From assembly GCA_041655595.1 (NCBI GenBank), contig JBBAFB010000003.1, forward strand, positions 1 to 49,727: a stretch of 49,727 nucleotides of DNA, given 5' to 3'. The notes beneath the pieces were generated by a model. That model was given only the letters and a program-made list of their open reading frames with translations, ran no database searches and was not told the origin of the DNA. This document shows, piece by piece, positions 31,384 to 39,349 of the stretch. This DNA is from Bacillota bacterium. Its GTDB lineage: Bacteria; Bacillota; DULZ01. Position 1 is the first letter of the stretch; the number at the start of each line of letters is the position of its first letter. Made by a program: the position numbers and the translations under genes.

Positions 31384-31400
31384 ATGCAACTTTCGTGCCA
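31384..31400 (-). promoter_or_regulatory. sigma-54 (-24/-12) promoter of the nos operon
   Basis: Minus strand reads TTGGCACGAAAGTTGCAT, which matches the consensus TGGCAC-N5-TTGCW at every fixed position. It lies ~120 nt upstream of the first cytochrome c start. Confidence 0.75.
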
Positions 31401-34088: not shown

Positions 34089-34104
34089 AGCAAAAAACAT
34101 GCCA
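34089..34104 (-). promoter_or_regulatory. sigma-54 promoter of the FtsX-ABC/DUF4418 operon
   Basis: Minus strand reads TGGCATGTTTTTTGCT (GG-N10-GC spacing correct), ~45 nt upstream of the permease start. Confidence 0.65.
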
Positions 34105-34411: not shown

Positions 34412-34972
34412 ATGCAACAAAGAAAAATTAATAAAATTCTATCAGTTCTATTGTCTATTCTTATTTTAGGCTCCATCACCAGTTGCGGACAAAACACACT
34501 CCCGGGAACAAATGAAATAAAAGATGCCGATCAGACTGTCCACAACCATCAGAGTTTTAGCACTGTCTACGAGCTGGATCAAATAATAGAGTTACACCCT
34601 ATTAAAGTGAGACTGGTAAATACCGGAATAATTTCTAACCCTTTATATGAAAAAGGAAGTGATGATCAGAAGGGACATTTGGCATTAGGTCTGGAAGTAG
34701 GAAATGTATCAAGCGATCTGGCATGGTTTTTTTCCGAACAATCCGAGATAATTCTGAATTCGGGTGAAATCTTAGAAACGGATGTAAACACATCCTCTGA
34801 TTTGGGAGGAAGTTTTCCACCCCACAGATTGAAAAAAGGGTTTTTAGTTTTTCCTTTTAAAGATACGGAGCCAAATACAATCAAAGAATATGTTTTAAAA
34901 ATCAAAGCCCCCTTAAATAGCAAACAAATTTCCATTGGGGAGGATTTAGAATTAAAAATTAACCTAAAATAA
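34412..34972 (+). CDS. secreted lipoprotein, DUF4352-like beta-sandwich
   Basis: 186 aa. Lipobox GSITSCG. Family call is tentative. Confidence 0.55.
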   Translation: MQQRKINKILSVLLSILILGSITSCGQNTLPGTNEIKDADQTVHNHQSFSTVYELDQIIELHPIKVRLVNTGIISNPLYEKGSDDQKGHLALGLEVGNVSSDLAWFFSEQSEIILNSGEILETDVNTSSDLGGSFPPHRLKKGFLVFPFKDTEPNTIKEYVLKIKAPLNSKQISIGEDLELKINLK

Positions 34973-35009: not shown

Positions 35010-36386
35010 CTAAATTAAGTTATATTTATTTAATAAACGGTGAATCGTTTTTCTGTCAATCTCTGCAGTTATAGCTGCCTGGGTTACATTTCCATCATGC
35101 TTTTCCAATAAATTTTCTATATATTTTATTTCAAAATCTTTTACCCAGTTTTGTTTTGCCACATGAAAAGGCAGATCGAAAAGCATTTGATTTGATCTAT
35201 CTTCATTATTTTTAAGAAGGTTTGGGGGTAAATCTTCAGGCAATATTGTTTCCCCTTCACAAAGTGAGATAGCTCTTTCTATCACATTTTTTAACTCCCT
35301 AACATTACCCGGCCAGTTATAACTTTGTAAAATCTCCATCGTTTCAGCTGAAACCCCGCTAATTTTCTTTTGTGCCGTCTCTGCAAATTTGCGACTAAAA
35401 AAATACACTAGTAGAGGGATATCCTGCTGCCTTTCTCTTAACGGTGGTAGTTTCAAATTAATTACATTAATTCTATAGTATAAATCGTCTCTAAATTCTT
35501 TGTGTTGAATTGCCTCTTCTAAATCGCGATTTGTTGCGGAAACTAGGCGGAAATCTACTTTAATCAACTGATTTCCCCCCACTCTTCTAAATGAGCGTTC
35601 TTCTAAAGCTCTTAACAACTTTGCCTGTAAAATCGGACTCATTTCACCTATTTCATCTAGGAAAAGAGTACCCTTATCTGCCAGTTCCATTAAACCCTTT
35701 TTAGTCATGTGGGCCCCGGTAAAGGCACCTTTTTCGTGACCAAAAAGTTCACTTTCCAGTAAATTATCCGGCAAAGAAGCGCAGTCAACTGGTATAAAAG
35801 GTCCTAGGCTCCGATTGCTGTTTTTGTGGACACTTCTGGCGATCAGTTCTTTCCCTGTACCACTTTCCCCTTTGATCAGTACTGCTGCTTCACTGCCACC
35901 TAATTTACCGATGGTTCTAAAAATTTCTTGAAGCCCACCGTTAGCGCCAATAATATTTTCTGTGTGGAGGGGCTCTTGGATTTGCATTCTTAATAATCGG
36001 TTTTCTTCCCTTAATGCTTTTTCCCGCAAGGCTTTTTCAATCACAATCTGCAATTCATCAACGGAAAAAGGTTTAGCGAGATAATCCCGTGCTCCACCTT
36101 TCATAGCCCTGACCGCAGTATCTATGCTGGCATAACCCGTAATAACAATTACACATGTGTCGGGAAAAAGCTCCTTCGCAACTTTTAAAACTTGAAATCC
36201 ATCTACCTCCGGCATTTTTAAATCAGTAATAATCAAATCCGGTTGTATTTTTTCCATTTCGGCTACCGCTTTCGCACCCTCATTAAAGTTTACCGGTTTA
36301 TAGCCCATTTTTTTAACAACACGCGAGCAAGTTTCAAGCATATCAAGTTCATCATCAACAAGCATTACAACCCTTGGTTCTTCCAT
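35010..36386 (-). CDS. sigma-54-dependent NtrC-family response regulator (REC + AAA+ + Fis-type HTH)
   Basis: 458 aa. Receiver (DDE...IITDLKMP), Walker A GESGTGKE, sigma-54 contact loop GAFTGA, C-terminal HTH (GNVTQAAITAEIDRKTIHRLL). Confidence 0.9.
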   Translation of the reverse strand: MEEPRVVMLVDDELDMLETCSRVVKKMGYKPVNFNEGAKAVAEMEKIQPDLIITDLKMPEVDGFQVLKVAKELFPDTCVIVITGYASIDTAVRAMKGGARDYLAKPFSVDELQIVIEKALREKALREENRLLRMQIQEPLHTENIIGANGGLQEIFRTIGKLGGSEAAVLIKGESGTGKELIARSVHKNSNRSLGPFIPVDCASLPDNLLESELFGHEKGAFTGAHMTKKGLMELADKGTLFLDEIGEMSPILQAKLLRALEERSFRRVGGNQLIKVDFRLVSATNRDLEEAIQHKEFRDDLYYRINVINLKLPPLRERQQDIPLLVYFFSRKFAETAQKKISGVSAETMEILQSYNWPGNVRELKNVIERAISLCEGETILPEDLPPNLLKNNEDRSNQMLFDLPFHVAKQNWVKDFEIKYIENLLEKHDGNVTQAAITAEIDRKTIHRLLNKYNLI

Positions 36387-36392
36387 CTATTA

Positions 36393-37658
36393 CTACTCCC
36401 TTATGCTAATATATGGGAAGTAAATACTAAATCTACTTCCCTTACCCAGTTCGCTGGATACATTTATGGTACCACCATGGTCGCCAATAATTTTTAAACT
36501 AACGGGTAAGCCCAAACCAGTGCCCAGGTCTCTGCTTTTAGTGCTAAAAAAAGGATCAAAAAGTTTAGCTATAGTTTCTTCTGTCATCCCCTCGCCAGTA
36601 TCTTCTATATCCAGCCTGTTCACCTTTAACTCCGGCAAGTTTCGGCAAACTATAAAAATATTTCCACCACGTGGCATGGCATCCCCGGCATTGGCGATTA
36701 GATTAACTAATACTTGTTGAAGCTGCTCCTTATTCCCTTCCACTACAATGGAATCCGGCAATTTTATTTTAAACTCAATCCCTTTTCTAAGAAATTGTCT
36801 TTTAAACCAATCAACAGTTTCATTCACTAAAGGTTTCAAATCAACCAACTCTGTTTCTGCAATGGGTGGCCTTGTAAAAGTAAGCAGTCCCCTTGTAATA
36901 TGACTGATTCTTTCTATATGTTTTTTTATAATTTCCAAATCTTTAACCAATTCGGGAGACAAACTACTACCCATCTCTAAAAATATTAACCCCAACCTTG
37001 CACTGATGACACCCACCGGGTTATTTATTTCATGCGCCAAATTTGCAGCCAGTTGTCCTGCCGCTGCTAGCCTTTCGGTTAGTATCATCTGATTTTGTGC
37101 CTTTTCTAATTCCTCAATACTTTCTCTGAGGGCCTCATTTAGCCCGCAAATTTCTTTATTGGCTTTTTCTAGGCTGTCCCTTTCTTCAGCTAAATTGTTT
37201 ATTAAACGATCCCTATGCAGGGTTGCGGCTAATTGATGTCCAATGGCCATGATAATTTCCATATTGGCTCTACTCAATTTTTCTTCCCCGGGGTTTTTTA
37301 AAGTTATTACCCCTAAAACTTCAGTTCCTGCAACTAGTGGTATGCAGACATGACAAAGGGAGTAACACTCTTTCTGAACCACACCACAACAGTGAGACCT
37401 TTTATCTGCATTAATAATAATTGGGAGCTGGTCATTATAAACCTTACATTGGTGTTTTTTATCAATGGTACTACAGACAAAATTGCCCCCATCTTGTAGC
37501 TTAATTTGGGACTTATAAGGACTAAATGCCTTATTTAATTCGTTTTTTGCTGCATCAAGCATTTCATCAATAGACAAAGGTAAAAAGCTGGTAATATTAT
37601 TAATTTTAATTAAAGCCTCCGTTTGCAAGTTCAGCTTCCTGTCAAGCAAAAACCTCAC
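36393..37658 (-). CDS. soluble sensor histidine kinase with a Cys-rich GAF-like N-terminal domain
   Basis: 421 aa with no TM helices. GAF-like region contains 7 Cys, including CC-x6-C-x3-C-x2-C. H-box LAHEINNPVG, N box NLIANAGDA, G boxes DTGEGM and GTGLGL. The start may be the TTG at 37628 (AGGAAG SD) rather than the GTG at 37658. Confidence 0.85.
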   Translation of the reverse strand: MRFLLDRKLNLQTEALIKINNITSFLPLSIDEMLDAAKNELNKAFSPYKSQIKLQDGGNFVCSTIDKKHQCKVYNDQLPIIINADKRSHCCGVVQKECYSLCHVCIPLVAGTEVLGVITLKNPGEEKLSRANMEIIMAIGHQLAATLHRDRLINNLAEERDSLEKANKEICGLNEALRESIEELEKAQNQMILTERLAAAGQLAANLAHEINNPVGVISARLGLIFLEMGSSLSPELVKDLEIIKKHIERISHITRGLLTFTRPPIAETELVDLKPLVNETVDWFKRQFLRKGIEFKIKLPDSIVVEGNKEQLQQVLVNLIANAGDAMPRGGNIFIVCRNLPELKVNRLDIEDTGEGMTEETIAKLFDPFFSTKSRDLGTGLGLPVSLKIIGDHGGTINVSSELGKGSRFSIYFPYISIRE

Positions 37659-38664
37659 CCTTTACCACTTTACCCATTATACTAATGTTTGCCGGATTTG
37701 CATTTAACGGGACTTCACACCCTGTACTTAAAATAAAACCTTTCCCTTTGCTCCCAATATCAAGCAAATCCTTACATTGTTTAGCTATATCTTCTGTCTT
37801 TAGATTAATTAGATCAAAAGGTTTAATGTTACCAGCTAAGGCGAGATCAGGTGCTAGATCCATACACTCTTTTAAAGAAACTTCATAATCAATTGTGGCC
37901 AAATCAACACCGCAATCTTTATAGTAAGGTATAATGTATTTTGTCCTACCCGTAATCATTAACCAATTTATTTTTGCACCTTCAAGACGAAAGTGAGAAA
38001 ATAGTTCCTTTAAGAGGGGGGCTACAAATTTGCGAAAAATCCGAGGAGGAATAATATTTTGCGAAGCGGTTGGTTCCATGATGATAATTATTGAAGCCCC
38101 CGACCTAATCAGGGCCTTTCCATAATCTTTGCAAACATGAAATGTTTGTCTTAACAAGCTTCGAAACTTATCTGGTTCATCTACTAATAAATACAGCAAT
38201 TGATCTAAACCCATTAGTTGTCCCGCAATGCTTGTCGGTCCAACCACACACCCAACCACCGGTATATCATCCTTCACATTTTCCTTTAAGATAGCACATG
38301 CTTTAATTACTTCCCGCATCCTGCCCGCTGTATAAGGATCGAATAACGGCAGGTCCTTGATCTTTGATAGACTAGAGAAAACAGGTCTTGTCACATAAGG
38401 GTAATCATTTTCAGGAAAATATGTTTTACAGCCCAGAACCTCCGCCTCTAGGGAGTTATCACCATAGGCAAAAACAGCATCATAGCCAAAGTGCTTTTGT
38501 GCCCTTAGTTGACAATCTGCCATTATTTCTCCGTTGTCCAAATAATCTTTGAGCCAAACCCCCTGAAAAATTGCAGCATAACCAAATACAAGCGGAATGC
38601 AAATACAATCAGTATGTTTTTTTTTGCCTTCAACCATTGCTATCATTTTTTGCAATACGGTCAT
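37642..38664 (-). CDS. UroD-superfamily MtaA/MtbA-like corrinoid methyltransferase homologue
   Basis: Start moved to the ATG at 38662-38664 (GGAGTG upstream). 340 aa. URO-D/MT2-A-like length and sequence, and it follows a corrinoid protein gene. Confidence 0.75.
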   Translation of the reverse strand: MTVLQKMIAMVEGKKKHTDCICIPLVFGYAAIFQGVWLKDYLDNGEIMADCQLRAQKHFGYDAVFAYGDNSLEAEVLGCKTYFPENDYPYVTRPVFSSLSKIKDLPLFDPYTAGRMREVIKACAILKENVKDDIPVVGCVVGPTSIAGQLMGLDQLLYLLVDEPDKFRSLLRQTFHVCKDYGKALIRSGASIIIIMEPTASQNIIPPRIFRKFVAPLLKELFSHFRLEGAKINWLMITGRTKYIIPYYKDCGVDLATIDYEVSLKECMDLAPDLALAGNIKPFDLINLKTEDIAKQCKDLLDIGSKGKGFILSTGCEVPLNANPANISIMGKVVKGEVFA

Positions 38665-38668
38665 AATG

Positions 38669-39349
38669 TTACACTCCTTCTTTCTTTCGAAGATAGTCAA
38701 TTACGTCAAAAGCAGTATTAGCAACAAAATCAACATTTAAGTCCTTAGGGTTTGATTGGCGGGTGGCACCACCCCCCGCTAAAACAAGGACACCTTCCAA
38801 ATCAATCGCACCTAATGCTGGCTTCACTTCCTTAATGTAATGCATGGTGGTAGTGATTAAACTGCTAATGCCGATATATTTTGCGCCTTCTTTTTTAGCC
38901 TCCATTGCAAAAACTTCCGGCTCGACATCCTTTCCCAAATCTACCACTCTATAGCCGGCCATTTTTAGTAAGATGGCCACTATATTTTTACCAAGGTCGT
39001 GAATATCCCCCTTAATGGTCCCTAAAACAAAAACCTCTTTACCTTTATACCAGGTATCTAAAGAAACACACTCCCCTTCACCTAAACGTGGACAAATAGA
39101 TTGTTCCATAACTTCCATAACAGCCCTGCCAGCCAATAATATTTCCAAAAGATTAAAATGGTCATTATTACATTTAACATCCAAAGAAACTAGGGCTTCA
39201 GTTAGGCCTTCCTCTACAACTTGACGCACATCAACACCTAGAGCCAGTAAGTTTTCCGCTACCCTGACCGCCTCGGTAGCCTGTCCATCTGCCACAAGGT
39301 CTGCTAGTCTTTTTATTTCATTTTTTCTTGAATCTTTTTTTGCTGCCAT
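38669..39349 (-). CDS. corrinoid (B12)-binding protein, MtaC/MtbC-like (cap + Rossmann domain)
   Basis: 226 aa. Base-off/His-on signature GDIHDLGKN ... SSLITTT ... LAGGGA. SD GGAGG 6 nt upstream. Confidence 0.85.
   Translation of the reverse strand: MAAKKDSRKNEIKRLADLVADGQATEAVRVAENLLALGVDVRQVVEEGLTEALVSLDVKCNNDHFNLLEILLAGRAVMEVMEQSICPRLGEGECVSLDTWYKGKEVFVLGTIKGDIHDLGKNIVAILLKMAGYRVVDLGKDVEPEVFAMEAKKEGAKYIGISSLITTTMHYIKEVKPALGAIDLEGVLVLAGGGATRQSNPKDLNVDFVANTAFDVIDYLRKKEGV

Follow-up and report, generated by a model that had tools for sequence, protein, structure and literature searches.

A conserved cysteine triad in the GAF-type sensor domain of a nos-linked histidine kinase, a candidate cofactor pocket

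Among the described sensors closest to the one presented here, MsmS is said to bind heme through a cysteine of its GAF domain, and VnfA has its cysteine motif at the extreme N-terminus. In NreB, whose PAS domain carries the motif C-x2-C-x11-C(-x2-C), the iron-sulfur (Fe-S) cluster is a three-Cys [2Fe-2S] in Bacillus licheniformis and a [4Fe-4S] in Staphylococcus carnosus (PMC13478379); the GAF domain of CSK/Hik2 has a [3Fe-4S] cluster (PMC6949291), and that of VnfA a probable [3Fe-4S] cluster (PMC9542535). MsmS and RdmS of Methanosarcina acetivorans are without an H-box and were reported not to be autokinases (PMC11784639). The subject of the present study is a cysteine-rich segment in the sensor domain of a histidine kinase linked to nitrous oxide (N2O) reductase (nos) genes, and encoded on a 49,727-nt stretch of DNA from a Bacillota bacterium (contig JBBAFB010000003.1 of assembly GCA_041655595.1); this whole stretch is called the window below. 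The best explanation for the segment is that it would form the ligand pocket of a distinct GAF subfamily, with C71, C91 and C105 as its core. The positions concerned are the following:

37344..37475, minus strand: Cys-rich segment, codons C62 to C105; seven Cys and H103 in 44 residues
37473..37475, minus strand: C62 codon, candidate fourth ligand; Cys in 10/22 sequences, Cys or His at 62/63 in 17/22
37446..37448, minus strand: C71 codon; invariant (22/22)
37389..37391, minus strand: C90 codon, first Cys of a CC doublet; Cys in 11/22, mainly closer relatives
37386..37388, minus strand: C91 codon; invariant (22/22); column of the 'CH' chromophore Cys of phytochromes and cyanobacteriochromes (CBCR)
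37353..37367, minus strand: C98 and C102 codons (37365-37367 and 37353-37355); only in the window's protein and P0003
37350..37352, minus strand: H103 codon; column with H 12, Y 6, R 3, C 1
37344..37346, minus strand: C105 codon; invariant (22/22); on model strand 102-110, same face as H103

The kinase has cysteines at positions 62, 71, 90, 91, 98, 102 and 105, plus two at 171 and 338. Translation of the open reading frame (ORF) agreed in full with the first-pass annotation of this DNA as to the seven positions, the segment coordinates (37344-37475) and the printed string SHCCGVVQKECYSLCHVCIPLVAG.

Conservation was followed in an alignment of 22 family sequences, 26-72% identical to the window's protein. 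A word-indexed search of the sensor region against 5.8 billion proteins returned three relatives, and HMMER, run exhaustively over 1.84 billion representatives, about a dozen full-length ones, the many remaining HMMER matches being generic multi-GAF proteins aligned over residues 100-160 only. As a single query against 60 relatives, the sensor domain gave no match beyond the window's own genome; the profile search did find members. The GTDB genomes contributed extra members, from Desulfosporosinus nitroreducens P130, a Desulfitobacterium metagenome-assembled genome, five genomes of the window's phylum, Sporomusa acidovorans and Thermanaeromonas sp. C210. The family is discrete: its members score 168-210 bits against the family hidden Markov model (HMM), the next protein 72 and all others at most 52. 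The core kinases are about 415-450 aa long, one member being a 598-aa hybrid with a fused receiver, and in their sources the members carry only the labels 'ATP-binding protein' or 'histidine kinase'.

The triad C71, C91 and C105 is present in all 22 sequences, and likewise in P0157, P0158 and the outliers P0016 and P0111. It accounts for three of the nine invariant columns (17 sequences) of the 165-residue sensor domain, the mean column identity of which is 43%, and it is absent from the generic GAF domains compared. The conserved spacing is C-x19-C-x13-C. Further cysteines, CC doublets included, are frequent among the members: each has 6-13 Cys, of which 3-10 fall between reference positions 45 and 110 (65-83 residues), and in L023 the triad provides the only Cys of that region. 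At position 50, where the window's protein has Ser, 14/22 sequences have Cys, and at reference position 96, where it has Lys96, 7/22 do. Conservation in orthologues, on which the first-pass annotation had made its proposal depend, is thus found for the triad; it extends to about half of the sequences for C62 and C90, and fails for C98 and C102, which are confined to the window's protein and its 70%-identical relative P0003. With the latter pair goes the earlier view of C-x3-C-x2-C as a classical [4Fe-4S] motif. C90, C98 and C102 are probably lineage additions in the window's protein, and the alignment leaves as candidates for a variable fourth ligand a Cys or His at 62/63, C50, or the His or Tyr at 103.

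A triad-bearing GAF domain also heads two larger, distant multi-domain kinases, P0111 (L032:1518-4025; 835 aa, with the order GAF-GAF-PAS-histidine kinase) and P0016 (1214 aa, five GAF matches). The P0111 gene lies after a MiaB-like radical SAM gene, on a 6.5-kb contig in which no corrinoid or nos genes were found.

The density of the segment was set against the background of the genome (2.09 Mb in 169 contigs), where Cys makes up 0.94% of the residues in ORFs of at least 150 aa. The probability of at least seven Cys in 44 residues is 1.8e-7 per 44-residue window, so that about 0.1 such windows would be expected per proteome; the cluster is therefore not due to chance. Forty-one ORFs of the genome reach this density. 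Most of them have 8 Cys per 44 aa and ~16 in all, and, by Cys count alone, they would mostly be ferredoxin-like. Genome G000 also contains at least 15 paralogous ORFs of ~190 aa with 16 Cys each (e.g. C40:4329-4907, C40:10111-10689 and C40:14722-15300); they look like ferredoxin-type subunits with four clusters, a hint that the genome has respiratory oxidoreductases in large number.

The position of the cysteines in the fold was considered on an AlphaFold2 model of kinase residues 1-200, built from a 15-sequence alignment (predicted local distance difference test score, pLDDT, 86.9). The model shows two N-terminal helices (the family-specific motif LIKINNxxGFLP corresponds to helix 1), a strand at 49-54, a short helix at 72-76, a strand at 80-82, a low-confidence loop at 83-101, a hairpin formed by 102-110 and 113-122, and then a single long helix, 130-199, that leads into the phospho-acceptor domain. 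All its Foldseek matches are GAF domains (PtsP, Nlh1/Nlh2, NifA, cyclic nucleotide-binding GAFs and, repeatedly, the free methionine-R-sulfoxide reductase fRMsr), with E values of 4e-6 and weaker and template modelling (TM) scores of 0.5-0.7 against solved GAF domains; fRMsr structures 3rfb, 3ksf, 3mmh, 1f5m and 1vhm are among the best. Pocket placement was reasoned from the secondary structure and from alignment to solved GAF domains. C62, C71, C90, C91 and C98 are in low-confidence segments of the model, where GAF domains build the lid of the pocket, and H103 and C105, two residues apart on the floor strand, share one face. C102 should point away from C105, since the two are at i and i+3 of the same beta-strand. 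Profile alignments with three phytochrome/CBCR GAF structures (8w26, 6bhn and 6xhg) put C91 in the column of their canonical 'CH' chromophore Cys; the residue that follows C91 is other than His. Alignment with the Escherichia coli fRMsr, MsrC (hhalign), places H103 opposite Glu107 and C105 opposite Val109 of the E-I-V-L-P strand, and Lys96 opposite Cys100; we take this Glu to line the fRMsr active site and Cys100 to be the catalytic Cys. The triad subfamily has no insert before C71, and its lid is short. On the model, the triad would thus lie, at an approximate position, in the canonical ligand-pocket region of a distinct GAF subfamily.

The rest of the protein is a conventional kinase, laid out as follows:

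36393..37658, minus strand: sensor histidine kinase gene; 421-aa ORF, GTG start at 37658
37275..37658, minus strand: N-terminal sensor domain, residues 1-128, GAF fold
37062..37271, minus strand: long continuous helix, residues 130-199, from the GAF domain to the phospho-acceptor domain
36870..37058, minus strand: HisKA domain with the H-box AHEINNP (H209 codon, 37032-37034)
36411..36734, minus strand: HATPase_c catalytic domain

The likely start is the TTG at 37649, three codons further on, as in the homologues and in database record P0002 (418 aa). In Pfam, residues 201-263 match HisKA (42 bits) and residues 309-416 HATPase_c (82.6 bits), and H209 of AHEINNP is invariant among close homologues; with its H-box His and its HATPase_c domain, the protein meets the classical definition of a HisKA-type kinase and has an intact kinase core. 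The GAF match (PF01590, residues 69-147) is weak but above threshold (25.3 bits for a cut-off of 22.4), and no PAS, radical SAM, Fer4 or CCG match was obtained in Pfam. Together with the fold of the model, it bears out the earlier assignment of the Cys cluster to a GAF sensor domain. The protein had also been described as soluble and without a transmembrane segment; this holds too, because the single stretch above the usual hydropathy threshold (residues 101-119, 19-aa Kyte-Doolittle mean 1.76) is the GAF beta-hairpin of the model.

The kinase gene belongs to a group of genes whose members and likely targets in the window are these:

38669..39349, minus strand: corrinoid protein gene, B12-binding_2 plus B12-binding, with the D-x-H-x-x-G motif (GDIHDLGK)
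37642..38664, minus strand: URO-D/MtaA-like protein gene, the 3' end of which overlaps the kinase start
35010..36386, minus strand: cognate sigma-54-dependent response regulator (REC, AAA+ sigma-54 interaction domain and HTH_8 in Pfam; adjacency conserved)
34089..34104, minus strand: sigma-54 promoter-like site with one mismatch, upstream of FtsX/ABC/DUF4418 genes
31385..31400, minus strand: exact match to the sigma-54 promoter consensus, lying upstream of the nos cluster and probably targeted by the system

The arrangement recurs among the core members. The genes for the corrinoid protein and the URO-D/MtaA-like protein directly precede the kinase gene in all 13 distinct contexts, sometimes with a RACo corrinoid activator and a DUF1638 gene inserted before it. 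The sigma-54 response regulator follows in 11 of the 13, and in one further context a truncated ORF at the end of the contig (L006) corresponds to its receiver domain. This conserved adjacency substantiates the pairing of the kinase with a sigma-54 activator put forward at first. A nos cluster lies alongside the kinase in 12/13 contexts; the receiver-fused hybrid has no nos genes nearby. The linkage was also counted in a sample of 401 genomes of the window's GTDB phylum, a true family match being defined by E <=1e-47. Six genomes, each of a different family, have the kinase, and 8 have nosZ; the kinase is present in 6/8 nosZ-positive genomes and in 0/393 nosZ-negative ones, and in 5 of the 6 genomes the two genes are 7-11 kb apart. 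One of the two nosZ-positive genomes without the kinase is 78% complete. The other, G262, is complete (nosZ at C1:112955-113167) and has no member of the family; nos must therefore be controlled in another way there. From this linkage, the kinase and its Cys pocket are probably part of a control system for N2O respiration.

Several details of the module bear on how it may work. The URO-D gene runs past the kinase start (TTG 37649 or GTG 37658) to its stop at 37642, and overlap or near-abutment is also seen in related loci, which suggests translational coupling. The corrinoid protein has a cap cysteine, Cys60 (39170-39172, minus strand), invariant in 13/13 orthologues within K-C-x-x-[DE]-x-F-N-L-L-E-I; this residue and the kinase triad would allow a '3+1' shared site. 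In the URO-D protein, W-L-x-I-T-G (W-L-M-I-T-G in the window) is found near residue 234 (37963-37965) in 13/13 orthologues, at what we take to be the position of the H-x-C zinc ligands of MtaA, and the protein is probably not a zinc-dependent thiol methyltransferase; it keeps G-C-E-x-P, with Cys in 12/13. Predicted complexes of the URO-D protein, the corrinoid protein and the kinase sensor domain gave an interaction prediction score from aligned errors (ipSAE) of 0.00 in both runs, made without controls, a result that speaks neither for nor against binding. In NCBIfam, neither the kinase nor the URO-D and corrinoid proteins reached the cut-off of any curated family, and Rfam found no riboswitch in the window, only a tRNA.

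A few oddities were seen around the module. A divergent 186-aa ORF (34412-34972, plus strand) between the regulator and the FtsX genes is conserved, with 33-57% identity and in the same place, in seven related loci and has no Pfam or NCBIfam match. On two metagenome contigs, at L009:7840-13287 and L015:5199-9222, the module stands beside unusual nos sets with separate small cupredoxin/COX2-like genes and a Fer4_5 membrane protein; L009 has in addition two nos_propeller genes in tandem and, upstream, a gene for a hybrid-cluster (Prismane) protein. At L012:1960-2604 and L017:1813-2499 a DUF1638 gene separates the URO-D gene from that of a RACo-type corrinoid activator.

What does the triad do? 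It very probably has a function of some kind. Quite possibly, it holds a thiolate-bound cofactor, most likely an Fe-S cluster bound by three Cys and one exchangeable or non-Cys ligand, and this is the reading that we tentatively favour. The presence of three invariant Cys with a variable fourth position speaks for Fe-S, as do the short and Cys-rich lid, the fact that such Cys density is otherwise typical, by Cys count, of Fe-S proteins in this genome, and the precedents of NreB, CSK/Hik2 and VnfA. The shortness of the sensor region and the lack of an insert before C71 would suit a compact cluster better than a large tetrapyrrole. A change in the redox, ligand or occupancy state of the cofactor would then be the input to the kinase; the unbroken helix 130-199 would pass the signal on to the H-box kinase core, which would set the phosphorylation of the sigma-54 activator and, through it, the activity of the nos and FtsX/ABC/DUF4418 promoters. 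Candidate signals are nitric oxide (NO), O2, the cellular redox state or, once the partner corrinoid has reacted with N2O, its oxidation state. The site could accordingly be an independent second input beside the corrinoid module (redox, NO or O2), or a report of corrinoid oxidation by N2O. That P0111 carries the triad without corrinoid genes nearby suggests that the site is self-contained, rather than one whose cluster the kinase and the corrinoid protein share. A more specific proposal, that the redox cofactor of the triad exchanges electrons with the co-encoded corrinoid protein or reads its state, so that N2O oxidation of Co(I) is converted into kinase activity, seems to us decidedly unlikely.

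Several points weigh against an Fe-S cluster. The spacing C-x19-C-x13-C is not that of any classical Fe-S motif, the fourth ligand varies between members (one of which has just three Cys in the region), and the pLDDT of the Cys loops is only 60-73. Moreover, three-Cys sites also suit Cu(I), Zn, As or Hg, and Cys-rich GAF pockets can act metal-free, as in the disulfide relay of fRMsr, or bind tetrapyrroles, as in phytochromes and MsmS.

Another soft metal, either Cu(I), in a copper-supply sensor for NosZ, or a structural or redox-labile Zn-thiolate, is a somewhat unlikely alternative. By established coordination chemistry, three invariant Cys and an optional His suit trigonal Cu(I) or a Cys3His Zn site, and the CC doublets and extra Cys of many members point the same way, as does the link of the kinase to nos, the product of which requires copper, and to the FtsX/ABC/DUF4418 operon behind its sigma-54 promoter. 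However, copper sensors do not usually work by inducing a periplasmic copper enzyme in response to Cu(I) in the cytoplasm, and P0111 bears the triad in surroundings free of nos and copper genes; structural Zn leaves unexplained both the pocket location and the constant co-encoding of the corrinoid and URO-D-type proteins. A metal-free switch based on a thiol/disulfide pair or another thiol modification, on the model of the fRMsr relay or of sensing by RdmS, is unlikely. The reaction of N2O with cob(I)alamin reportedly yields an oxidising radical (Drummond and Matthews 1994), and thiols close by could be oxidised by it; fRMsr, which has three Cys around the same pocket, is among the best Foldseek matches, and the seven members with Cys at reference position 96 have it in the column of MsrC Cys100. 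In addition, RdmS is called a thiol-based sensor in the title of a reference cited in PMC11784639. Yet the triad columns differ from the fRMsr Cys positions, Lys96 faces Cys100 in the window's protein, a disulfide pair needs fewer than three invariant Cys together with frequent extra Cys or His, and the hosts include strict anaerobes (Desulfitobacterium, Desulfosporosinus and Sporomusa), whose cytoplasm is strongly reducing.

Binding of heme, another tetrapyrrole or a corrinoid in the pocket through Cys91, as a covalent thioether or an axial thiolate, is distinctly improbable, even though C91 falls in the chromophore-Cys column of three solved GAF domains, GAF is a known tetrapyrrole-binding fold, a corrinoid protein is always co-encoded and RACo-type corrinoid activators are often nearby. 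Here, a non-His residue follows C91, 10/22 sequences have Y, R or C in place of H103, the best axial candidate, one thioether does not need three invariant Cys, and bilin-binding GAF domains would be larger than a subfamily with so short a lid; the H-box, intact in the window's kinase, is missing from MsmS and RdmS, reported not to be autokinases (PMC11784639). Finally, that the cluster has no function, being a product of chance or a lineage-specific compositional feature, is extremely improbable: four of the seven Cys are indeed not kept family-wide (C98/C102 in 2/22, C62/C90 in about half), but the triad stays invariant at 26-72% identity, against a mean column identity of 43%, and the density of the segment has a probability of 1.8e-7 per 44-residue window.

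Membership of known classes was also considered and rejected. A radical-SAM or ferredoxin-like C-x3-C-x2-C site would require C98 and C102, present in 2/22 sequences, and the model has C102 and C105 on one strand; no radical SAM or Fer4 match exists in Pfam. For an HdrB-like CCG domain, defined by C-Xn-C-C-G-Xm-C-x2-C, the window's protein offers C71...C90-C91-G92...C102-x2-C105, but G92 and C102 are not conserved and Pfam gives no CCG match. The protein is not an fRMsr, a class with a catalytic Cys ahead of the E-I-V-L-P strand and two resolving Cys, the counterpart of Cys100 being Lys96 (Cys in 7/22 only) and the triad falling in other columns. An Fe-S PAS kinase of the NreB type was set aside for want of a PAS match and on account of the C-x19-C-x13-C spacing, and a kinase core of the MsmS/RdmS type (without H-box, MA_type 2) on account of the H-box of the window's kinase.

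To our knowledge, N2O reductase is the sole known biological sink for the greenhouse gas N2O, and the control of its expression is poorly understood, especially in clade II and Gram-positive N2O reducers. Here, a kinase family is tied almost perfectly to nos genes and to a corrinoid module, and the triad offers a precise experimental handle on the nos-controlling signal in Desulfitobacterium, Desulfosporosinus, Sporomusa, Thermanaeromonas and many uncultured anaerobes. The kinase/corrinoid/URO-D/nos module appears to be undescribed: the searchable literature, including the Desulfitobacterium genome paper and the preprint on an acidophilic Desulfosporosinus N2O reducer, holds no description of the regulator, and no described N2O sensor protein was found in it, a phrase search giving only instrument papers and unrelated matches. 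If the cofactor reading is true, a new Cys-ligated site is added to the range of known GAF domains. If the corrinoid-reading proposal were true as well, a first biological sensor dedicated to N2O would be at hand, with the Cys pocket as its transducer and an input mechanism of which no counterpart has been described.

When the known systems are set beside the window's kinase, each shares some of its traits. NreB, an oxygen/sulfide sensor, is likewise a soluble cytoplasmic histidine kinase with clustered Cys in an N-terminal sensor, acting on anaerobic respiration genes, and in B. licheniformis three Cys and a labile fourth ligand suffice for a cluster; NreB, however, uses a PAS domain and the response regulator NreC, whereas the window's kinase has a GAF domain, a sigma-54 activator and co-encoded corrinoid and URO-D-type proteins. 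CSK/Hik2, from chloroplasts and cyanobacteria, is also a soluble histidine kinase with an N-terminal GAF domain, in which a redox-active Fe-S cluster is incompletely ligated by Cys. There, the single established ligand of Hik2, C19, is near the N-terminus and no Cys motif is evident, whereas the window's kinase has three invariant pocket Cys. VnfA and AnfA resemble the nos-linked kinase in that conserved GAF cysteines are needed for activity, in a sigma-54 circuit with a metalloenzyme under its control; VnfA unites GAF domain and activator in one protein, while in the window's system the GAF domain sits on a separate kinase, where the Cys would line the pocket. The fRMsr (E. coli MsrC/YebR) shares with the window's domain the GAF fold and three Cys around the pocket, but the Cys are at other positions and the protein is a stand-alone enzyme, not a kinase input. 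MsmS and RdmS have a GAF sensor with a functionally important Cys and a genomic tie to corrinoid methyltransferase genes. Unlike them, the window's kinase has an H-box and a cognate response regulator, its corrinoid genes are in the regulator's own operon, and the neighbours with sigma-54 promoters are nos genes. The analogy with MsmS drawn in the first-pass annotation gains some support from the place of C91 in the phytochrome-type chromophore-Cys column, and breaks down at the H-box, present here and absent from MsmS and RdmS (PMC11784639). To conclude, Cys-ligated cofactor sites in kinase sensor domains are already known, and the triad site would be a different version of them, in what appears to be an undescribed regulatory module.

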